In this document: positions 3,447-64,000 of the stretch, piece by piece
How positions within the stretch are numbered: the first letter of the stretch is position 1
How the letters are laid out: each line of letters begins with the position of its first letter
Assembly (NCBI GenBank): GCA_965242865.1
Contig: CBDETK010000013.1
Span: 1,440,001 to 1,504,000 of the forward strand
Direction of reading: 5' to 3'
Source of the DNA: Candidatus Latescibacterota bacterium
GTDB taxonomy: Bacteria; Latescibacterota; UBA2968; UBA8231
DNA length: 64,000 nucleotides
Position numbers and translations under genes: made by a program
The notes under the pieces: generated by a model
Told to the model about the DNA's origin: nothing
What the model saw: only the letters and a program-made list of their open reading frames with translations
Databases searched by the model: none

Positions 3447-6400
3447 TCAGCGGAGGAGGACGAGCTTGGCGTAGCGCGGGGGGGTATGGGTGCTGCGGAA
3501 GCGGGCGAAGTACGGGCCGGTGGCGGCTGCATGGCCGCGGTCGTCTCGGCCATCCCACAGCATCCGGTGGACGCCCGCGTGGAGTGGCGCGTCCACGAGC
3601 GTGCGCACGAGTTGGCCTTGGACGTTGTAGATCGCCAAGCAGATGGATGCGGCCCGGCTGAGGTGGAAGCCGAGGTGGGCGGTTGCGTTGAAGGGGTTGG
3701 GCCAAACTTGGAGGGAGGAGGCCGGACCGGGCGGTTTGGTCGCGAATTCGGACACTCGCTCTACAGCTCGCCCGGGCGAAAAGGGCGCCCCGGTCGGGGA
3801 AGCGGTTTTGTGCGGGACCCACGCGCCGCCGTCGGGCGGATAGCGGGCGATGGACTGGTCGTCGGGCCAAGTGGGTAGGGAGACGCCAGCCACCGGCTCG
3901 CCCGTGCCATCGATCAGGTGAATGGCTTCGCCGCTGTTTTGTAGGCCATCGCCGATGCGCCCGTCGTCGGTATAGACGGGGACGGCAAACCCCGAGGGGC
4001 TGCCCCCGCCAAAGAGGACGACGTACGATCGGGGGCCGATCACCGCCCCGGGCGGGAAGCGGAAGTACGACAAGAGGGAGGCTGTGTCGCCCAATCGCCA
4101 GCCGCTTAGATCGACCGAGGTGGAACCGGCATTGTAGAGTTCGACGAATTCGTCTTCGTACGGGTCGTGCCGCCCGTCTCGATTGGCGTCGCCAGCCGCC
4201 CCGGAAGGCGGATCGGCCAGCACCTCGCTGATGAAGAGGGCGTAGATCGGCTTGGGGATGGGCGGCGGTTTGGGTTTTTCTGGTTTCTTAGTCTGCGTCT
4301 TTGGGGCCTGTCCCGGGGAAAAGGGAGCGTAGATCGGGGAGGCGGTTTTGTGCGGGACTAGCGCGCCGCCCGCCGCTGGGACGCGGACCAGGGATTGGTC
4401 GTCGGGCCACGTGGATTGGGAGAGAAACGCGACCTCATCGCCGCGATCGTCAATTAGGTGAATGGACTCGCCGCTGTTTTGCAAACCGTCGCCAATGCGT
4501 CCGTCGTCGGTATAGACGGGGACGGTGAATCCCGAGGGCTGGCCGCCGCCAAAGAGGACGAGGTACGAGCGCGGAGCCACGACCGCGTTGCGCGGAAAGC
4601 GAAAGTAATCGCCGAGGGGGCCGGCGTCGCCCAACCGCCAGCCGGCCAAGGCAATGGGCACGGGGCCGGCGTTGTACAGCTCGATGAACTCGTCTTCGTA
4701 GGGGTCGTGCCGCCCGTCTTGGTTGGCGTCGCCAGCCGCCCCTGCTGGCGGGTCGGCCAGCACTTCGCTGATGAAGAGGGAATGGACGATGACCGGCCGC
4801 GTGTCCGGGGCGTGCCCAGGGGAAAAGGGTGCCCCGGTCGGGGAGACGGTTTTGTGCGGAACCAGCGCGCCGCCGGCCGAGGGGACGCGGACCAAGGATT
4901 GGGTGTCGGGCCACGTGGATTGGAAGAGGGACGCGGCCTCATGGCCGTGATCGTTGATCAGGTGGATGGCTTCGCCGCTGTTTTGCAGGCCGTCGCCGAT
5001 GCGCCCGTCGTCGGTATAGACGGGGATGGTGAATCCCGAGGGCTTGCCGCCGCCAAAGAGGACGACGTACGAGCGCGGGGCCAGAACCGCTTTGCGCGGA
5101 AAGCGGAAGTAATCGCTTAAGGCCCCGGCGTCGCCCAATCGCCAGCCGGCGAGGGCGATGGGCACGGGCCCGGCGTTGTACAGCTCGACGAATTCGTCTT
5201 CGTGGGGGTCGTGCCGCCCGTCTCGATTGGCGTCGCCAGTCGCCCCCGCTGGCGGGTCGGCCAGCACTTCGCTGATGAAAAGCGGATAGGTGATGACCGG
5301 CCGCGTGTCCGAAGCGTGTCCGGGGGAGAAGGGTGCTCCAGACGGGGAAGCGGTTTTGTGCGGAACCATGGTGCCCCCGGCGACTGGGATGCGGACGAAG
5401 GACTGGTCTTTGGGCCAATCGTCGTGCGAGACGGTGGCGATCTCGTGGCCGTTGTTGTCGGTCAGGCTAATTTTCTCGCCGCTGTTGGTCAGGCCGTTGC
5501 CAATGCGCCCGTCGTCGGTATAGACGGGGGTGGTGAATCCCGTTGGCATACCGCCGCCAAAGAGGACGACGTACGAGTGCCCGGCGATGACCGCGCCGGA
5601 GGGAAATTGGAAGTGGGTGCTCGGCGGCTTGCTGTCGCCCAGCCGCCAGCCGGCCAAGGAAATGGCAATCGGCCCGGCGTTGTACAGCTCAACGAACTCG
5701 TCTTCGTAGGAGTCGCGCTGCCCGTCTCGATTGGCGTCGCCGCGGAGCCCCGAGGGCGGATCGGCCAGCACTTCGCTGATGAAGAGCGGATAGTCCGGTT
5801 TGGGGATGATGTGCGTGCGGCCGGGCGAGAAGAGGGCTTTGACCGTGGAGGCAGTTTTGTGCGGGACCAGCACGTCGCCGTCAGGTGGATGGCGGACGAG
5901 GGATTGCTTGCTCGGCCAAGTGCCGTGTGAGACGATGGCGATCTCCGCGCCGGTGTCGTCGGTCAGGCTAATTTTCTCGCCCTTGTTGGTCAGGCCGTTG
6001 CCGATTTTTCCGTCGTCGGCATAGACCGGGACAGCGAATCCCGTTGGGCTGCCGCCGCCGAAAAGGACGACGTACGAGCCGGGGGCGATTACCGCGCCGG
6101 GCGGGAATTGGAAGTGGGTGCTCAACGCCTTGCTATCGCCCAGCCGCCAGCCGCTTAGGTCGATGGGGGTTGAACCGGCGTTGTACAGCTCGATGAATTC
6201 GTCTTGAGAGGTGTGGCGCTCGCCATCTTGGTTTGCGTCGCCAGCCGCTCCCAAAGGCGGATCGGCCAGCACTTCGCTGATGAAGAGCGGGTAGTCCGGT
6301 TGGGGGGACTGGGGCTCGGCTGGCGGTTCGGCCGGCGGTTCGGCCGGCGGCTCGGCAGGTGGCTCGGCTGGCGGCTCGGCTGGCGGTTCGGCAGGCGGTT

Positions 6401-9122: not shown

Positions 9123-10568
<1,446 letters not shown>

Positions 10569-55942: not shown

Positions 55943-57874
55943 TCAATCGAGACCATTTGCCGCTTTCTGCTTTGCTTTTTGTAGTTGGTTATATCGCTCC
56001 AGAAATTCGTCGTGTGCTCGTTTTACCATGTCGAGTAAATCTATGTACCTTCTGACGTAGATTTGCGAGTTTGCTAAGTTTCGTTTTTTCCCTCTCACTT
56101 GATAGGTGTCAACCAAATCACCGCAAAGGAGATAGCCCGTAACGGCCTCATATTGATAATCGGGATCCGTCGTCCGTTGAATGTAGTCCTGCATGAAGCT
56201 AACATATTCTTCAATTTGGTTGAGTTCTTGCACAGAAGCCTTTAACTGTGGACGTTTGATTTCCACTACGACTAAGTTCGTGCCTTCTCGTACACAGAGG
56301 AAATCAATTCGTCTATCGCTTTCCGGTACATCGCCATCTTCTGGAAATTTCCCACGTAGTAAGTCACTGTATCTCTTCTCGTCATCTACCAGCGACCAAC
56401 GCGGGTCAATCACCCAAGGGAATTCTTTTAGGAAGTTGTGGAGCGTCGGCACTTCCAGCGCATTGTCTTCAATCAGTTTTTGCAGTTTTTCAATCGTCGT
56501 TATGCGCCCTTGGGTGACGCGCGCCATTTCTTTGGCTTCGACGATTTCCCACTCGCGGAATAGGTTGAGGAGCTTGTCGGTGTCTTCAAACTCCGTTTCG
56601 GTTAAGTCGGCGGCGATTTCCCAAAAGGCATCGAACTCGAGAAAATCGAGGGACGTTTGGATGACGGGTTCAATTTCCTCGACATCGGCGGTTGGGTTCT
56701 TGTCGATCACTTGACGCACCAAGCGGTCGGCGAGTTTAAGGGCGCGGTTATTGCCCGTTTCTTTGGCTTGCTCGCGGAACTTAACGTAGAGCGCGTTTTC
56801 TTCTAGCTGCTGTTCGTTATCGTCGCGGCGTTTCTTGCCCCACTTGCGGGCAATTTTGTTGACCTCTTTTTGACCCCACTTTTTGAGGGCCGTATTGGGC
56901 TCCGTGTCCCATACTAGCGAGTTTCGCGTCGTTCCGATTGTATCTTCCCCCTCATCGACAAACTCGACATGGAGTTCGCCAATAAGGTAAGAAAGGGCGA
57001 ACTGTTGACCGACAACGGCTTCAAAAACAAAAGGCTCTTGTACTAGCTTGCCTCTCGCCATGAGAACGATTCCTCGGTCTATGCCGTCAATATCTGGCGT
57101 CGTGCGGTTTAGTGCGCCGATCCAGCCCGATACAGTCCAGCTCGTTTGGGGCTGGATTTCTACGGCGTCGTACTCCCATAAATACGGCTTGCCGTCCATG
57201 TCTTTGTCGAGCAAGAGTTTTAAGTCGCGATCTTCAGGCGAGATTGGGTCGCCGTTAATGACGACCTCGAAGTCTCGTTGTGCGCCAATGACGGCGAATC
57301 GTCTGGCGAGTCCGCGGCGGATGCGGTTGATCGAGATGCGGCGGCTTTTGAATTTGGTGATGTGTCTGAGGGTGATTTTCGTGCCTTTGGAGACGGTTCC
57401 AGTAGAATCTAACGGCGGAAACTCGATGGTGCGTTCGTCTGCTTTTTCCAACAGTTCGTCGTAGTTCATGCGGAAGTGGCTGCCTTCGCCGTCTTTCACG
57501 CTTTCTAGGTCGATCTCTTTGGCGATGCCAAAGGCCGAGAGTTTGCCAATGCCCTTTCGGCCCATGATCTTGCGGTTGCGCGGCGGAGGCGTCAGGTCGG
57601 ATTGCTCGTTTTCGCGGCGGTCTCGACCGACGATGAGGTACTTGTTTCGCACGTCCTCGTCGGACATGCCCATTCCATCGTCGCTGATGACGATCTCCGA
57701 ATGCTCGTCAATCGGTACTTCTGGTATGGCAATCTCAACTTTGGTCGCGTTTGCGTCCCAGCCGTTGGCGACGAGTTCGCCGATGACGGGCGGCAGGGTC
57801 GAGTACATCTGCAAGCCGAGATGCTTGATGGTGCAGACGTCAAATTCCATTCGATATGCTTCTTTAGAATCCAT
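55943..57874 (-). CDS. GHKL/MORC-like ATPase fused to a C-terminal PD-(D/E)XK nuclease (R-M associated)
   Basis: ELVANGWDA.A, DDGMGM, GRKGIGKL, GTKITL; C-terminal RIDFL...VVVEIKRP. Confidence 0.82.
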   Translation of the reverse strand: MDSKEAYRMEFDVCTIKHLGLQMYSTLPPVIGELVANGWDANATKVEIAIPEVPIDEHSEIVISDDGMGMSDEDVRNKYLIVGRDRRENEQSDLTPPPRNRKIMGRKGIGKLSAFGIAKEIDLESVKDGEGSHFRMNYDELLEKADERTIEFPPLDSTGTVSKGTKITLRHITKFKSRRISINRIRRGLARRFAVIGAQRDFEVVINGDPISPEDRDLKLLLDKDMDGKPYLWEYDAVEIQPQTSWTVSGWIGALNRTTPDIDGIDRGIVLMARGKLVQEPFVFEAVVGQQFALSYLIGELHVEFVDEGEDTIGTTRNSLVWDTEPNTALKKWGQKEVNKIARKWGKKRRDDNEQQLEENALYVKFREQAKETGNNRALKLADRLVRQVIDKNPTADVEEIEPVIQTSLDFLEFDAFWEIAADLTETEFEDTDKLLNLFREWEIVEAKEMARVTQGRITTIEKLQKLIEDNALEVPTLHNFLKEFPWVIDPRWSLVDDEKRYSDLLRGKFPEDGDVPESDRRIDFLCVREGTNLVVVEIKRPQLKASVQELNQIEEYVSFMQDYIQRTTDPDYQYEAVTGYLLCGDLVDTYQVRGKKRNLANSQIYVRRYIDLLDMVKRAHDEFLERYNQLQKAKQKAANGLD

Positions 57875-57890
57875 AACATGTCTCCTTCAG

Positions 57891-58007
57891 TATGGAAATC
57901 CTACATCATTCAAGGCTGGATTCCCGCGTTCGCGGGAATGACTTCTCGTAAATAAAAAACAGTGCCGATCAACATTCCATGCTTTCAAGTCATTGAGGAC
58001 GGATCTA
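57891..58007. mobile_element. ~118-bp MITE with dRS3-like core, copy 2 (degenerate ends)
   Basis: ATCCTACATCATTCAAG.CTGGATTCCCGCGTTCGCGGGAATGAC...CCATGCTTTCAAGTCATT. Confidence 0.72.
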
Positions 58008-59027
58008 TCAGCATGACGCGGCGATTGATTGGCCTAATTGTTCGGCGAGTTTTACCGGGACTGCGTTGCCGATTTGGCCCGATAGAAATAAAAAGGATGG
58101 GCCGAAAAATTCGTAATCGTCGCCAAAGGTTTGGAGCGCGGCGGCCTCGCGCAATGAGATGCCTCTGTCTTGGTCGGGGTGGATGAAGCGGCCGCAATAG
58201 ACGTCTGTGCAGCGGCACGTCAGGGTTGGACTTGGCGCGTCCCATGCCATGCGGCCAAATACGTCTTTGTGGGCGTTTGGCTGCTTTTGGTGGCACTTGA
58301 GTAGGATGGACGGGTCTGTTACTTCCCGTCGGCTGCCGCCGTTTTTGGGGACGGCCGCGACAATGCGTTTGTGGTGTGGTTGCAGTTTTCTGGCGACGTG
58401 ATTCGGGTATGCAGTTGATGCTTCGCCGTCGGCAATAGTCGGGTACTGGCCAATGGCGCGTCGCACGGTGGCATGGGCGGCGGTGTGTGGGCTGGGGAGC
58501 GAGGCGGTCCCGTGTCTGGAAGCTACGATGATGAATCGCTTGCGCGTCTGCGGAACGCCGAAATGTTTCGCGTCGAGTAAGTCCGCTGCTGCTGAAAAGC
58601 CGCATCTTCGCAGAACCGACAGAAACTCTCGGTAGATTTCTTTGCCGTAAGCGTTGTTCAGTCCGGGGACGTTCTCCGCTAGGATGAAATCAGGGGGGCG
58701 TTCTTCGACGATTTTGGCAAAGTCCAATAGGAGTGCTTTTCGTTTATCTTGGCCTTTCAGCTTATTGAGGGTGGAGAAGGGTTGGCACGGCGTGCAAGCC
58801 GCGTAGAGCGTCAAGTCGCCATCTTCTATGCCGAGTGCTTGGCGGAGTTTGTGGATTTGAATGTCGTTGATGTCGCTGTTGATGAAGCGGCATGGTTTGT
58901 TATTGTGTAGGTAGGTCTCCCGCAAGCGTAGATCATTATCGACGCCGGCCAGCACCGAGATGCCGACATTTAACAGTCCTCTGGTTAGGCCGCCGGCTCC
59001 GCAGAAGAAGTCAATTGCTTTAATCAT
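58008..59027 (-). CDS. DNA (cytosine-5)-methyltransferase
   Basis: DFFCGAGG, PCQPFS, ENV, GVPQTRKR, REAAALQTF, QIGNAVP; alternative start at 59039. Confidence 0.93.
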   Translation of the reverse strand: MIKAIDFFCGAGGLTRGLLNVGISVLAGVDNDLRLRETYLHNNKPCRFINSDINDIQIHKLRQALGIEDGDLTLYAACTPCQPFSTLNKLKGQDKRKALLLDFAKIVEERPPDFILAENVPGLNNAYGKEIYREFLSVLRRCGFSAAADLLDAKHFGVPQTRKRFIIVASRHGTASLPSPHTAAHATVRRAIGQYPTIADGEASTAYPNHVARKLQPHHKRIVAAVPKNGGSRREVTDPSILLKCHQKQPNAHKDVFGRMAWDAPSPTLTCRCTDVYCGRFIHPDQDRGISLREAAALQTFGDDYEFFGPSFLFLSGQIGNAVPVKLAEQLGQSIAASC

Positions 59028-59044
59028 GGGGGGCCTCATTTATA

Positions 59045-59162: not shown

Positions 59163-62100
59163 CTACCGGAAAATCTCGTCAAGACGCCAAACGAGTCTGA
59201 GTGCGTCCGGCCAGCCTGTTTTGGCGAAAATATCCAATAGGTTCAACAGATCCTCCAAGCTATCCCCTTCGCGTACTTCGCTCCGGTGGTCGGCGAGGAC
59301 AGTCTCGACTAATTTGACAACCTCCGTAACTGCGAGGGAATCGAGATTGTAACCAGACGGTTCACTTGAACGTGCGACTCCCGCCGCTAAATGCAAGACC
59401 TCTTTTGGATTACAGCTTAGAAAACTTGCTAGAAGCTGCATAAAACGGTGTGCCGTCGGTGCGAACATGACGCCATTTTCTTCATCTCGTGCGAAATCAA
59501 TGATCCGCTCCATAAGCGGCTTTACTTCGTTATAGAATCGACAGCGCAACTTATCCGGGATTTTCTCTGCTGGTTTCTTAGAGGTTTTGTTTTCGTATGC
59601 AACCTCAAGGTAGAGATCCATAACCACTCCATCAATGACTTGGTAGGTAGCATGTAATTTTTTTTGTTCTTCCTTGGTGTTACTGAAGGTCTTACACAAT
59701 TTTTGAATTGCGGGAGAAACAGCATCAACCGCTTGCTCTAACCATTTAATAGCCCGTTGAATTTTTTTGCGTCCTTCAGAAGTTTCGAGGTTCTTCGGGA
59801 CGACATAATTTTTTATGACATAAGACACAGCGCGATTTAGGGGATTGGCGAATCGGACAGGATCGCTTAAAAAGGTATCTTTGATTGTTTTTAATGACCA
59901 TGAATTTTCACGGTCGATTGCCAGCCACATCAACAAAGCAATAAGCGAATCTTTTGGATCTGCACTCTCTGGCAGTATGCGCTTGAGCATCTTATCCATG
60001 ACATGGATTGTCTTATCTTCATTCTCTTTCTTCAATGCGGCGACTTTAGTCAACGTATAGTAGAGGTACTTTTGTACGACGTGAGTCCCTTCATGAGTTG
60101 CCCTATACTCTACGATTTTCCAGAATTTTTCGGGCTCTTTATCGTAAATTAGGAACAATTCCGTAGCTGCTACCATCCGAACAGAGGACACAGGGTCACT
60201 GGCAAGAGATTCGATTGCGCCTAACATCTCCGCATCAGGTCGCCGAGCTGCGAACCTTAGCAGGCCTTGGACAGCGTCATGCCGTGGGAATGGAGAATAC
60301 ATAGGAGTATTGGATTGAGCATTGCTTGAATCTGGCTTGGGCAGTTCGTGCCTTGCAGCTTCTAAAAACACTTGACGACAAAAAGAGAATTGTTTGTCCT
60401 CAAGATTAGAAATTCGACCGAGGATTGCAATGCAAGCCGTCAGTTTATACCAGAGAGAATCAATTACCTTTTTGTCAGCTTTAGTATTCCCCTTTACAGC
60501 GGTGTATGCTTCGTGTAAAGGCGGAAAAATCAACTTGGTAGCTGTCGCATTTGGTACTTCATTTAGCCACTCTGAGTTGAATTTATTGAGAGCTCCGAAA
60601 AGGCGTTGTAGTTCTTGATTTTCTGGTTTAGTTGTGTCAACACCTTGATCTTGAAGCAACATTTCTTCAGAATAGGGCACTCTTGAAGATTTGAAGCTGA
60701 ATAAAGGATCATTTCGGGGCACTTGATCCTTCTGCTCCATTTCTTTCCAGATCTCTTTAGCTTCTTGAGTCTGAATCAAGTCCTTTGATATCCTTGCTAT
60801 GAGCCGGTTTCTTCGTCGTTCAAAGTCTTTGGACTCATCTTCGTTCGTTGCTTCTGAGGGCAGCTCCAAAATGGCATTTTCAATCTGACGTAGTTGATCG
60901 GGCGTAAATTTAGATGCAGCCGCTTCTAAAAATAGACCGAGTTCGTGAAGGACCTCGCGACTCTTTTGTATCGGTTTTGCTATACAAATTTCAAACAAGT
61001 GTGGTGCGAAAACTTCGGGAGACTGAGCCGCAGTCTTTAAGAGTCGTTTCCAGAAAAATGCGACCTGCACGTGATCGCAGAAAACGTCAAGCAGTGAATC
61101 GAGAGAAAAGTCTTTAGACTTGTCTAAATCAGCGATGAATGTAAATAAAGAATCCGCGATTTTGATAGACTCATTGTGCCTAGCCTCATCCCAGATATGA
61201 CTGTTGTCTGGCACAAAGTACGCGGATTTTCCACGAAACTCGAATATCTCCTCCAAGTCTTTCATTGTCCGCTCTTCTCTGAGGTCCCCGACGATATGTT
61301 TTTGAATAATAAAAGAATTTAGGCTTTGGATCGCCGCTTGTGCTGCAACTAACGGCTTTGCCTCAAGAAATCTGGAGAAATGCATTATCAACCGAGATTG
61401 ACAGCTATCGTAGTCTTGGCGACGGTTGCTCGTTAAAGGTAAAACGGGGCCACTACTTAGGCTTGTCTGCTCAGTGCTCGTCTCGGAATACGTGAATACC
61501 GTGCGATAGACCAAGGCGACAAACTTAGGGTCAAAAGTCCAAATTTCGTCAACATGTTCGGTTAGCCACCACAGAAATTTTATTGGGAATTTACTTTCTT
61601 GAGTCAGGTCGAGAACCTTTTTAAGAAGAGGGCGAGATTCTTTGGGATTTGTACCATACGTTTTGGCAACAAGCGGCACCGCCCAAGAACTACCAAACCG
61701 ATTATACCAATCATTGTCACTGGTCTTTCTCTCTTGCCATACCCATCCAAGTAATCGTCGCCCAACTCGTCCACAAGTGTCTCTGATAGTCATGTTCTCG
61801 GTTTTTATCGCTCGCTCAAGAATATCCGAAGTGATGACTGCCAAATCCCAAGCAAAGTCGGCGTGGTAAGGAGGTAAAACTTGATCGAAGAAATCAATCC
61901 AGAGCTCGTCGCGTTTTATTTTAAGTGCCCGGATTGATTGCAAAAGCCGCATCATCGCCTCATTTGCGATAGATTCCCTTTTCTGCAATCTCTCCAAAAG
62001 CGGGGTCAGTTCCGTAGTTTTGCGGGCCTCATTTGCAATAACGCTCGTCGGAATTAAGCGGGCAAATAGACGTAAATGCACAGATTGATTACTTGGTAAA

Positions 62101-63218
62101 ATATGCCAGAAAGTACTCCAGAAATTTTCGGAGGTATTGTACCAGAGACGGGTAAAAAAGTAAGTGAGGCTTGGACGGAGAAAGAGTGGACGAGACGGTT
62201 CTTGAAGCACAAATGATACAAGTTTTTGAGGGCTATCTTCAATGAACAAGATACTGATTGCGTAATCAAAGAGAATGTTGTGAGAAAAGGCAATCCGTTG
62301 TCCAGCCGAAGAAGTCTTGGACAGGATCTCATCGCTCAGGAGAGCGTTCCATGCTGTCAGTCTCGCTTCTTTGTCAAGGTCAAGAGATTCATAAATGTAT
62401 CCCCGTCTGACGGTCAATGAACTTTCCTCAACCATCTGGTGTGCGATCTTTGTGAGGATGAAGCTACGGGCATCTGCATCGTTTGAACCCTCAATCCGTC
62501 GTTGCCAAAACAAATCGAGCAACTGGACTTCAGAACGGATCTGACTAAAATCAGGAACATCCTGTGAAGTCTTTAGGATTTTTTCTAATAGCCAGATATT
62601 GAACGGATTTGCAAGGAGGTTCTTAAAATCCTGAGAACCAGATTGATAGATAGACTCCAGACGTGGAATCTGATTAAAGACTTGTCGAATCTCATCCTCA
62701 TTCAAGGGTGGAATTGTAAAGTGTCGGCATAAAATCTCTTTGCTTTTGCTATAGTATGGAGACAGATCCGTATTATAAGGATTACTAAACAGATCCAAGA
62801 GGTCTTGCGATTTCTTTGCATCGTAAGTCCGTACTGTAACGACAACATTCCATGACTCCTTGAGCTCATGGACTGCACGTCTGATCAGGCGTAGAAAGCG
62901 TTTGCGCGTTTGTTCATTTCGAGCAGCATCGAAGGCGTCAAATAATAAAACCGATTTCTCGCGTGAAGCAGGAACGGACTTCAATTTTTCGATCAGATCG
63001 CCTTCGTAGGACAATTCTTCTTGTAAAGTTTCGCTCTTACCGTCTCCAAGTTGGTCAATCCGCAAAAAAAGATGAGGAGTTTTGTCTGCTTTTAGGCTTT
63101 GGCGAAGCTCTTTCAGTAGATAGGTTTTTCCAACACCAGGACTACCGATAACTACGCCATTTCCTTGAGAAGCAAAATCCTTCAAACTTTTGATCAATTT
63201 TTTTCGATCAATTTTCAT
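59163..63218 (-). CDS. Large STAND/NACHT-like NTPase (Avs-like) with long helical C-terminus and no N-terminal effector
   Basis: Walker A GSPGVGKT near the N-terminus, Walker B LLFDAFD, VVTVR sensor, NPF, FSHNILFDY; ATG 63218 overlaps the SIR2 stop region. Confidence 0.75.
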   Translation of the reverse strand: MKIDRKKLIKSLKDFASQGNGVVIGSPGVGKTYLLKELRQSLKADKTPHLFLRIDQLGDGKSETLQEELSYEGDLIEKLKSVPASREKSVLLFDAFDAARNEQTRKRFLRLIRRAVHELKESWNVVVTVRTYDAKKSQDLLDLFSNPYNTDLSPYYSKSKEILCRHFTIPPLNEDEIRQVFNQIPRLESIYQSGSQDFKNLLANPFNIWLLEKILKTSQDVPDFSQIRSEVQLLDLFWQRRIEGSNDADARSFILTKIAHQMVEESSLTVRRGYIYESLDLDKEARLTAWNALLSDEILSKTSSAGQRIAFSHNILFDYAISILFIEDSPQKLVSFVLQEPSRPLFLRPSLTYFFTRLWYNTSENFWSTFWHILPSNQSVHLRLFARLIPTSVIANEARKTTELTPLLERLQKRESIANEAMMRLLQSIRALKIKRDELWIDFFDQVLPPYHADFAWDLAVITSDILERAIKTENMTIRDTCGRVGRRLLGWVWQERKTSDNDWYNRFGSSWAVPLVAKTYGTNPKESRPLLKKVLDLTQESKFPIKFLWWLTEHVDEIWTFDPKFVALVYRTVFTYSETSTEQTSLSSGPVLPLTSNRRQDYDSCQSRLIMHFSRFLEAKPLVAAQAAIQSLNSFIIQKHIVGDLREERTMKDLEEIFEFRGKSAYFVPDNSHIWDEARHNESIKIADSLFTFIADLDKSKDFSLDSLLDVFCDHVQVAFFWKRLLKTAAQSPEVFAPHLFEICIAKPIQKSREVLHELGLFLEAAASKFTPDQLRQIENAILELPSEATNEDESKDFERRRNRLIARISKDLIQTQEAKEIWKEMEQKDQVPRNDPLFSFKSSRVPYSEEMLLQDQGVDTTKPENQELQRLFGALNKFNSEWLNEVPNATATKLIFPPLHEAYTAVKGNTKADKKVIDSLWYKLTACIAILGRISNLEDKQFSFCRQVFLEAARHELPKPDSSNAQSNTPMYSPFPRHDAVQGLLRFAARRPDAEMLGAIESLASDPVSSVRMVAATELFLIYDKEPEKFWKIVEYRATHEGTHVVQKYLYYTLTKVAALKKENEDKTIHVMDKMLKRILPESADPKDSLIALLMWLAIDRENSWSLKTIKDTFLSDPVRFANPLNRAVSYVIKNYVVPKNLETSEGRKKIQRAIKWLEQAVDAVSPAIQKLCKTFSNTKEEQKKLHATYQVIDGVVMDLYLEVAYENKTSKKPAEKIPDKLRCRFYNEVKPLMERIIDFARDEENGVMFAPTAHRFMQLLASFLSCNPKEVLHLAAGVARSSEPSGYNLDSLAVTEVVKLVETVLADHRSEVREGDSLEDLLNLLDIFAKTGWPDALRLVWRLDEIFR

Positions 63219-64000
63219 CGTCGCCAATTCCCCTTTCCATGAGTTTATTCACTTGTTCCAGCCAATCCAATACATCTTGGGACTTACTCTGCGGTACAAT
63301 AGATGCCGGAGTCTCAACACCACACGCCTTGGCGATTTCAGTGACAATATTATCCAAATTCTGATGCGATCCGTCCAAATCCTCATAGAATACAGTCTCG
63401 ACACCATACTCTCTTCTGAGTCCTGTCGCTTTTGTTTTTGAATTCTCTGCACCGTCAGGAGAAATACTCGTGATTGTAAAATAAATGGATTTATTCCATC
63501 GCCGTAAATCCTCACTGACAGTTTCTAATATCTTGTTGAGATAGGGGTCGTTCATGCTGAAACCAAGAAAAACGACCTTACAGGTTGCGAAGACTGCCCA
63601 AAGTAATTTGCGATGGAGTTTCAATTCAGTTTCTTGCTGTCTGTTTTCATTAGTAAGATCCAAACCATAAGCGTGTTTGTAGTCTTCAATACTCAAAATT
63701 ATACTGCTTGGAGGATCAAATTTTCCATGTAAATGTGCAATACGTCGTGTCAAGTTACCATCATTCATTGCTCTAAGAAATTCATCAACTCGATCGGCAG
63801 ATCCACTATCAATAACCAAGGAGTTATCGGTAGCAGACAACGGCTCAATTTCAGCCAATGCGGTTTCGAGCACTGTATCATAGTTTGTCGTCAAGATTCC
63901 TCTAAAGGGTAACCGGACCAGCGTTTTGTGTAAATTATCAACTGGATAATTTTTAGGCTTAAATAAGTCATAAAGCAAAGCCTCATATCTTTCCTTTTTA
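63208..64000 (-). CDS. SIR2-like (SIR2_2) NAD-consuming domain protein; 5' end beyond the window
   Basis: ILTTNYD, HLHG, VFLGFSMNDP; frame open to the right edge. Confidence 0.85.
   Translation of the reverse strand, partial: KKERYEALLYDLFKPKNYPVDNLHKTLVRLPFRGILTTNYDTVLETALAEIEPLSATDNSLVIDSGSADRVDEFLRAMNDGNLTRRIAHLHGKFDPPSSIILSIEDYKHAYGLDLTNENRQQETELKLHRKLLWAVFATCKVVFLGFSMNDPYLNKILETVSEDLRRWNKSIYFTITSISPDGAENSKTKATGLRREYGVETVFYEDLDGSHQNLDNIVTEIAKACGVETPASIVPQSKSQDVLDWLEQVNKLMERGIGDDEN

Follow-up and report, generated by a model that had tools for sequence, protein, structure and literature searches.

An overlapping SIR2 and NACHT-like gene pair conserved across bacteria and archaea: a putative NLR-like module with a separate effector

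This analysis concerns two overlapping genes at the end of a 64,000-nucleotide stretch of a Candidatus Latescibacterota bacterium genome (assembly GCA_965242865.1, contig CBDETK010000013.1, positions 1,440,001 to 1,504,000 of the forward strand), which we refer to as the window. One gene encodes a SIR2_2 protein and the other a large STAND NTPase of the predicted NACHT type. The two genes form a real, conserved two-gene module. We consider it probable that this module is an NLR-like abortive-infection system, acquired horizontally, in which an NADase effector is held in trans by its receptor. By analogy with Avs5, DSR2 and ThsA, we infer NADase activity, phage sensing, oligomerisation and a role in defence. 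The initial annotation of the window had proposed a two-component NLR-like receptor with a separate SIR2 protein; the conserved split, the junction in fused relatives, the invariant motifs and a controlled co-fold support this proposal.

Both genes lie on the minus strand. The STAND/NACHT NTPase gene (59163..63218) encodes 1351 amino acids (aa), with its ATG at 63218-63216 and its stop codon at 59165-59163, and it has no N-terminal effector domain. The SIR2_2 gene (63208..64000) has the C-terminal 263 of its 351 codons inside the window, where its open reading frame (ORF; 63208-63999) is open at the window edge and ends in LMERGIGDDEN before the stop. In an extended version of the locus (L001, 8208-9263) the SIR2 ORF reaches the window-equivalent position 64263. 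The full protein has 351 aa and a GTG start, its first 88 codons lie beyond the window, and its N-terminus (MND...) is common to homologues. The SIR2 stop codon TGA occupies 63210-63208, and the STAND start codon lies within the last SIR2 codons and stop, leaving 11 nt common to both genes (ATGAAAATTGA, 63208..63218). A purine-rich Shine-Dalgarno (SD)-like run (GAAAGGGG, 63229..63236) is located 10 nt 5' of the STAND ATG, within the SIR2 coding sequence. The STAND reading frame is +1 relative to that of SIR2, which ends in AAT TGA. An ORF finder extended the STAND ORF to a TTG at 63227 (59163-63227), which is not the likely start. The ATG at 63218-63216 is favoured by comparison: MKI(D/N)R opens most of the close homologues as well as the protein called in the database (P0003), and the start is at this ATG (MKIDRKK...) in 8 of the 11 close homologues compared and in that gene call. 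Ten sense codons are open 5' of the ATG, and the Walker A motif is found at residues 25-32. Therefore, there is no space for an N-terminal domain in the STAND protein. The G+C content (GC) is 0.402 for the SIR2 gene and 0.439 for the STAND gene, compared with 0.606 for the contig. The initial annotation had described a SIR2_2 ORF ending in GIGDDEN with its 5' end beyond the window, an 11-nt overlap with an ATG that has its own ribosome-binding site, an NTPase of about 1350 aa whose early Walker A motif leaves no room for an effector, and an AT-rich region, and all of this was borne out.

The split arrangement is widespread. A word-index search with the STAND protein returned 747 relatives, with matches annotated as 'ATP-binding protein' or 'hypothetical'. 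Among the best 120, which were inspected, most are ~1350 aa long, a minority of ~1550 aa carries PF21941 (SMEK_N) and two of ~1700 aa carry PF13289 (SIR2_2). From one-genome-per-species contigs we took 79 related loci, mostly from Poribacteria and Latescibacterota metagenome-assembled genomes (MAGs), and also from Bacteroidota, Acidobacteriota, Verrucomicrobiota, Desulfobacterota and several archaeal MAGs. The STAND ORF is full length in 71 of them. At 61 loci no more than 31 codons are open 5' of STAND, 17 loci have an in-frame N-terminal extension of ~200-350 aa, and one (L031) is cut by the contig end. The extensions are SMEK_N in 14 cases, SIR2_2 in one (L079) and without a Pfam match in two (L059 and L080). 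An intact same-strand SIR2_2 ORF is located directly 5' of an effector-less STAND gene in 57 of the 79 loci (57 of the 58 ORFs submitted to Pfam). This count includes L004, where the contig stops short of the full ORF (12-713, 233 aa), and the decayed L036, in which SIR2 is in two frames and STAND is open for 392 aa only. The other four of the 61 effector-less loci (L054, L028, L058 and L074) contain SIR2 pieces in several frames and are broken copies.

The junction itself is also conserved, well beyond what chance or error would produce. The overlap is exactly 11 nt in 35 of the 57 split loci (34 with ATG and one with GTG). Overlaps of 4 nt (seven loci), 14 nt (three), 17 nt (two), 20 nt (one) and 1 nt (two) were also found; three loci have TTT at the aligned start and a GTG 3 nt upstream, and four have gaps of 2-13 nt. 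Altogether, the genes overlap by at least 1 nt in 53 of the 57 loci, and ATG or GTG stands at the aligned start in 53. All 34 loci whose STAND proteins are at least 50% identical have an SD-like tetramer at positions -18 to -5 of the STAND start, as do 11 of the 23 more distant loci; the respective background values within the same SIR2 genes are 0.17 and 0.15. Whether homologous pairs are split at the same point and whether reads agree had been raised at the outset. The 57 split loci and Logan contigs from four public runs, which have no indel at the junction, answer both questions in favor of a genuine split. One of these contigs (X1, from another study, depth 12.3) is a 97-98% identical variant whose sole indels are at 62741-62760. 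The window may derive from contigs X8 and X10, to which it is identical.

Fused relatives provide 'Rosetta stone' evidence for the pair and insights into the gene boundary. The N-terminal SIR2 parts of P0107 and P0121 are 50% and 48% identical to the window SIR2 protein over essentially its whole length. They match it up to ...DWLEQTNRRMEQFMG, which is followed directly by the STAND N-terminus RRIDNEINREKLL..., and their junction ...NRRMEQFMGRRIDNEINREKLL spans the gene boundary of the window pair. Since the fused sequence is continuous across this boundary, the boundary in the split form corresponds exactly to a domain linker in the fused relatives. L079 is also SIR2-fused and is a decayed copy; its downstream ORF has 46 stops and its STAND frame is open for 266 aa only. 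We built a FastTree tree from the first 640 STAND residues of 75 rows, with a midpoint root and SH-like supports only, leaving out eight broken or truncated loci save for a 264-aa piece of L079. All deep clades contain the split form, and the clade with Bacteroidota-type loci consists of it throughout (14 of 14 rows), whereas the fused forms nest within the Poribacteria/Latescibacterota crown, inside split clades. The minimum number of changes on the tree is two for fused SIR2, five for SMEK alone and three for SMEK with a separate SIR2 gene. The tree, which has a midpoint root with several long branches meeting, favors the split as the ancestral state with repeated fusion or module insertion, because the split is present in all deep clades and the fused forms are nested in the crown. 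The fused homologues, as judged from the tree, are a derived minority.

The SIR2 protein is related to known defense SIR2s. It matches Pfam SIR2_2 with an E value of 3.5e-20 for the window part and 5.5e-20 for the full 351-aa protein. The nearest PADLOC profiles are ThsA (8.3e-23), SIR2-type LmuA (3.8e-19) and DSR2 (9.6e-11), and the nearest solved chains are the ThsA SIR2 domain (6lhx, E 3.9e-12), KomC and DSR2. An alignment of 33 SIR2 partners shows no variation at Gly36, Gly38, Thr125, Asn127, Asp129, His179, Gly234 and Asp239. The residues that we take to be catalytic, in line with work on ThsA and DSR2, are Asn127 (TTNYD motif; 63883..63885, minus strand) and His179 (HLHG motif; 63727..63729, minus strand).

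The STAND NTPase is assigned to the NACHT type by homology, as its Pfam NACHT score exceeds the cutoff, and by predicted fold, for which NLRP3 and NLRC4 are the best matches. The NACHT family (PF05729) matches residues 25-185 with 32.4 bits (cutoff 26.7, E 1e-7). The nSTAND3 family reaches 24.8 bits, under its cutoff of 27.2, and the AAA_22 match is also weaker than NACHT. In the Walker A motif GSPGVGKT (residues 25-32; 63123..63146, minus strand), Gly25, Pro27, Gly28, Gly30 and Lys31 are invariant in 38 aligned sequences. The same alignment shows invariant Asp94 and Asp97 in the Walker B motif LLFDAFD (residues 91-97; 62928..62948, minus strand), an invariant Arg130, and an invariant stretch from Ser312 to Asp318 in the FSHNILFD motif (residues 311-318; 62265..62288, minus strand) of the winged-helix region. 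The NACHT Walker B signature is given as D[GAS]hDE (Kibby et al., 10.1101/2022.07.19.500537); the window protein reads D94-A-F-D97-A, with the small and the first acidic residues present and Ala in place of the second acidic residue. The AlphaFold2 (AF2) model of residues 1-640 (pLDDT 90.2, pTM 0.86) contains a NACHT-like nucleotide-binding domain (NBD), a helical domain and a winged helix. The FSHNILFD motif sits at a strand-helix junction in this model and, by analogy, is probably the counterpart of the NLR 'MHD' histidine. A Foldseek search with residues 1-640 placed NLRP3 (8swk, E 3.5e-9, TMq 0.44) and NLRC4 (4kxf) at the top, Avs4 at rank 11 and the AVAST5 filament 9nc9 at rank 48 (TMq 0.19). 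Residues 641-1351 (59166..61298, minus strand) form an all-helical HEAT/ARM-like solenoid in the AF2 model (pLDDT 88.1), which is the presumed sensor. Its top Foldseek matches are Avs4 (8dgf), the PP2A subunit PR65 and importins, all with low TM scores.

A helix at the SIR2 C-terminus may connect the two proteins. In split SIR2 proteins, a conserved helix takes up the C-terminal ~25 residues, (L/M)DW(L/I)(E/K)(Q/K)xN..ME. In the window protein it spans residues 327-347 (...QDVLDWLEQVNKLMERGIG; 63223..63285, minus strand), which are the interface residues in the co-fold and the predicted docking element. The LDWL..N helix forms the linker just before the NTPase in SIR2-fused relatives and in SMEK-fused ones (for instance ...PLDWLKKANQYMEGSTDQKSTIKINREKLL), and it is kept in all three architectures, split, SIR2-fused and SMEK-fused. 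The 351-aa SIR2 protein (33-row alignment) was co-folded with STAND residues 1-640 (38-row alignment). The three runs gave ipSAE values of 0.65, 0.66 and 0.66, compared with 0.00 for the best of three controls, with a partner pLDDT of at least 76 and a contact agreement between runs of at least 44%. The mark used in calibration, which the pair passes, is reached by 116 of 157 solved complexes and by 2 of 215 mismatched pairs, figures that are approximate here since our own alignments were used. In the predicted interface, SIR2 residues 327-347 contact STAND residues 32-33, 36, 39, 43, 48-53, 56, 69-71, 78, 81-83, 94, 300 and 312. Co-folding of the two proteins, a check suggested at the outset, thus supports binding.

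The STAND family is large, and its effectors vary. In an exhaustive HMMER search, STAND residues 1-1200 matched 1901 representative clusters at a threshold of E <= 1e-3, 939 of them also at E <= 1e-30. Among the best 150 clusters, an N-terminal extension of more than 100 aa ahead of the aligned start is present in 10 and absent from 140. Pfam assigned Trypsin_2 to two of these 10 proteins, PNP_UDP_1 to one and nothing N-terminal to seven. The three proteins with a fused N-terminal Trypsin_2 or PNP_UDP_1 domain are the distant STAND-family members P0226, P0246 and P0233. The seven further extensions, of 165-316 aa, match nothing in Pfam; the N-terminus of PDC-M54A, a candidate defense protein discussed below, may be represented by one of these. 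SMEK_N, named as a nuclease domain (PMC10810196), matches, with an E value of 6.4e-63, a PADLOC model for REase-type effectors of short pAgos. An exchange of effectors of this kind is characteristic of NLR-like defense proteins.

The pair is present in a single copy in the genome. A search of 30 relatives (18 of the same genus; a sample, in which some genomes are incomplete) found no close homologue, the best match being partial with an E value of 1.6e-26. The low GC together with the absence from the sampled relatives indicates that the SIR2-STAND pair was acquired horizontally.

These data suggest how the module could work. The SIR2 and STAND subunits would probably be made via translational coupling, as indicated by the 11-nt overlap and the SD-like run before the second start. 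The last ~20 SIR2 residues would form a helix that docks on the receptor NTPase domain, near the P-loop helix, the adjacent strand and the winged-helix motif. The effector would thus be kept on the receptor with no covalent link, and the same helix would serve as the covalent linker in the fused relatives. A phage protein would bind to the solenoid. The NTPase would then bind ATP and oligomerise, which would bring the tethered SIR2 subunits together and activate them. NAD+ would be destroyed and the infection would abort. The modelled helix reaches the P-loop region as well as the invariant FSHN motif; therefore, it could couple the nucleotide state of the receptor directly to release or activation of the NADase. 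A broader proposal, which we put forward tentatively, is that a large NACHT receptor family in Bacteria and Archaea started out with its effector in trans and still has it so in most members. In this family the tail helix would plug a cleft between the NBD and the winged helix, effectors would be exchangeable 'cartridges', and fusion would have come later and repeatedly. The size of the family, the 140 of 150 best clusters without a long N-terminal extension and the number of changes to fused forms on the tree lend support to this proposal.

The bacterial NLR-like receptors studied so far (Avs1-5 and bNACHTs) are mostly single proteins with a fused effector, in which sensing is hard to separate from killing. 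A naturally separate effector with a short predicted docking helix would give a direct handle on the control of a SIR2 NADase by an NLR-type NTPase. The form with the effector in trans is also a possible explanation for the exchange of effectors between receptors.

Avs5 is the nearest characterised analogue in working mode. Avs5 (AVAST type 5; EfAvs5 and PaAvs5) likewise combines a SIR2 effector, a STAND NTPase and a C-terminal repeat sensor, and it has been shown to hydrolyse NAD+ upon sensing a phage protein (PMC12931631; PMC11897194). However, Avs5 is one polypeptide, whereas the window pair consists of two ORFs overlapping by 11 nt. The Avs5 NTPase domain is named nSTAND3 (PMC12931631), and the fold of the window NTPase is nearer to the NACHT domains of NLRP3 and NLRC4 than to the AVAST5 filament 9nc9. 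No model named Avs5 was among the PADLOC matches of the STAND protein at E <= 0.1 (the library content under that name was not checked), the only Avs match being Avs4, at 6.7e-6 on the NTPase. Membership in Avs5 was rejected at the sequence level, as neither PADLOC, phmmer nor a profile search detected similarity to Avs5 or to a solved STAND. The label 'Avs-like' in the initial annotation holds only loosely, as the NTPase is of the NACHT type and these searches revealed no sequence link to Avs5.

Like the window pair, the bNACHT proteins have a NACHT-type NTPase, a modular effector and a C-terminus of the repeat or HEAT type, and an antiphage role has been proposed for them. Their known N-terminal effector domains include SIR2, and their genes are described as rarely found in operons, which are themselves poorly conserved (Kibby et al., 10.1101/2022.07.19.500537). 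In contrast, the window effector has a gene of its own, whose overlap with the receptor gene is strongly conserved, and the Walker B sequence (DAFDA) agrees with the NACHT signature in part. The effector-associated-domain (EAD) conflict systems also have separately encoded effectors beside a STAND-type NTPase. In those systems the effectors are described as recruited to the NTPase by a small adaptor (Kaur et al. 2021, PMC8195603), whereas the window pair has no shared adaptor domain and its tether would be a single SIR2 C-terminal helix, the predicted binder of the NTPase domain.

Other systems have a related effector. Residues 20-283 of the window SIR2 protein match positions 11-243 of the 478-position profile of ThsA from Thoeris, that is, its SIR2 part only. 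Thoeris combines a SIR2 domain fused to a SLOG sensor domain with the TIR-domain protein ThsB; no SLOG or TIR domain was found in the window SIR2 protein or in the six neighboring proteins scanned. The SIR2-type LmuA of Lamassu is similar at the profile level (3.8e-19), but no match to its SMC-like partner LmuB was found in the five neighbors scanned or in STAND. The DSR2 C-terminal region was seen neither in the SIR2 protein nor in the scanned neighbors. Unlike ThsA, DSR2, KomC and LmuA, the window SIR2 protein has a NACHT receptor as its partner.

The closest match in PADLOC is PDC-M54, one of 145 PDC candidate systems found via 'guilt by embedding' in restriction-modification (RM), BREX and DISARM systems (Payne et al., 10.1101/2024.01.29.577857). 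The STAND protein matches three profiles of its protein A (PDC-M54A), the best with E 5.7e-196 over positions 300-1657 of 1657. The match is long but falls short of the full profile: positions 1-300 have no counterpart in the window STAND or SIR2 protein, and the neighbors scanned matched no PDC-M54 model other than A. The idea that SIR2 is the missing PDC-M54A N-terminus was rejected; the window SIR2, the fused SIR2s and the SMEK domains all fail to align to positions 1-300. We found no description of a conserved split SIR2 and NACHT pair in the open-access literature, the search having excluded subscription papers and supplements. The initial annotation had considered an undescribed subtype possible; the STAND family had already been flagged to some extent, as the PDC-M54A candidate. 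The pair would give a defined system name to a large family now annotated as 'ATP-binding protein' or 'hypothetical'.

Several points weigh against a two-gene, effector-in-trans defense module. PADLOC already includes this STAND family, as protein A of the multi-gene system PDC-M54, which itself has candidate status. The NADase assignment of the SIR2 gene product is probable and comes from SIR2_2 homology and conserved residues. Binding of the tail helix to the STAND NBD is supported by model confidence. Part of the co-fold result could reflect a likeness to solved fused SIR2-STAND (Avs5) structures; this is countered by the absence of sequence similarity between the window STAND protein and any solved STAND in phmmer and profile searches. 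At five loci (L039, L040, L042, L047 and L050), a SIR2 gene lacking the tail helix is located 5' of a SMEK-fused STAND gene, an arrangement that the docking-helix model does not explain. These loci would have either two effectors on one receptor or a SIR2 gene that is being lost; at L047, SIR2 is at 4332-5381 and SMEK-STAND starts from 5362. Promoter-like and terminator-like sites in L001 2800-13700 were uninformative, with 15 of each compared with 11.7 of each expected. Finally, clustering of every ORF of at least 100 aa in 80 loci showed that a homologue of a Type IIG/ISP-like RM protein (~1030 aa) is encoded directly upstream on the same strand in 31 of them, all from Poribacteria or Latescibacterota, with STAND split or SMEK-fused. 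The functional unit could exceed two genes in this sponge-symbiont clade.

A working unit of three genes, with the Type IIG/ISP-like RM protein as a first layer or partner of SIR2 and STAND, seems unlikely to us, though it is the strongest of the alternatives. The 31 loci include SMEK-fused forms and differing downstream neighbors, the gaps are short (8 nt in L003, and 21 nt both in L005 and in the window locus), and PDC candidates in general were found embedded in RM, BREX or DISARM systems. However, the association is confined to the Poribacteria/Latescibacterota clade (STAND identity of at least 53%), where shared synteny would explain it. No Bacteroidota, Acidobacteriota or archaeal locus has the RM gene though SIR2-STAND persists there, and the GC of the RM gene (0.536) differs from that of the pair (0.40-0.44). 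The ORF clustering of the 80 loci found no other gene conserved across phyla; therefore, the universal core is SIR2 and STAND. The pair could also have a non-immune role, as a regulated NAD-dependent protein deacylase or ADP-ribosyltransferase in housekeeping or signalling, which we regard as highly improbable. SIR2 folds include deacetylases, and the NADase activity of the window SIR2 protein is a prediction. Nevertheless, its best matches are the defense SIR2s ThsA, LmuA, DSR2 and KomC, its relatives swap the effector for nuclease-like, protease and phosphorylase domains and have a patchy distribution, and the pair has a foreign GC and sits in a restriction-rich island.

The remaining alternatives concern the split itself. 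Fused SIR2-STAND homologues exist (P0107, P0121 and L079) and the two frames are one base apart at the junction, as would suit a normally fused gene that is split by a frameshift of recent date, by pseudogenisation or by faulty assembly. But the split recurs in 57 of 79 loci of several phyla and archaea, with 35 identical 11-nt overlaps and a conserved start and SD-like run. Four runs show no junction indel, both ORFs are intact with invariant motifs, and the fused forms are nested in split clades. A frameshift or sequencing error, which the initial annotation had named as a finding that would overturn its proposal, was rejected on the basis of the 57 loci, the identical overlaps and the indel-free contigs, and we consider a broken gene extremely unlikely. 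The overlap could instead be a programmed +1 frameshift site that yields a fused SIR2-STAND protein alongside or instead of two subunits. Ribosomes would enter the STAND frame (+1) by shifting at a stop codon (AAT TGA), a kind of site known from prfB; the overlap length is unusually conserved, and the natural fused relatives show that a fusion is functional. We give this idea very little weight, as ATG or GTG is conserved in 53 of the 57 loci, and overlaps of 4, 14, 17 and 20 nt and small gaps would not keep one slippery site. Moreover, the SD-like run is found at initiation spacing in 34 of 34 closer loci, and re-pairing from AAT to ATT would be poor. Two separately initiated subunits, with the effector held in trans, are the reading that we prefer.

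In the window genome, the pair sits between the Type IIG/ISP-like RM gene and a second restriction-like gene pair. The RM gene (L001 9285-12563, window-equivalent 64285-67563, minus strand) encodes a 1092-aa product, is on the same strand as SIR2 and is separated from it by 21 nt on the 5' side. Its product has ISP_coupler, N6_Mtase and Type_ISP_C domains and matches the PADLOC model REase_MTase_IIG (E 2.1e-232). Sponge-symbiont lineages, represented by Poribacteria and Latescibacterota MAGs, carry and diversify the SIR2-STAND module, often beside such an enzyme. A Pro/Thr-rich tandem peptide repeat (...PVPTTADTPVPTTADTPVPTTADT..., L001 about 9740-9925, minus strand) interrupts Type_ISP_C, which appears as two Pfam stretches. 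Directly downstream of STAND, genes for a C5 cytosine methylase (343 aa) and a HATPase_c_3 protein (643 aa) occupy 55943-59039 (L001 943-4039, minus strand) with a GC of 0.51-0.56. The 643-aa protein matches PADLOC Type II REase models, and the two genes probably form a second restriction-modification module. ORF clusters 4, 5, 6 and 8 are syntenic genes downstream of the module in 16-19 Poribacteria loci, and the window locus has none of them. Clusters 2, 3, 7, 9, 10, 12 and 13 look like spurious short ORFs inside or antisense to large genes, by length and position.

A scan of L001 for tRNA genes found none that could point to the integration site. A 168-aa ORF (L001 12721-13227, minus strand, window-equivalent 67721-68227) matches PDC-S11 at positions ~45-128 of ~314 only (E 1.1e-13), and the C-terminus of the HATPase_c_3 protein is also a weak PDC-S11 match. 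The two matches could reflect a gene fragment and a nuclease-like motif in common. At L001 18500-20000 (plus strand, window-equivalent 73500-75000), on the far side of a 1542-aa FtsX/M28-peptidase gene, the GC again falls sharply, to 0.37-0.40. This low-GC stretch, with one ORF of 364 aa and another that is open, is probably a second foreign insertion.

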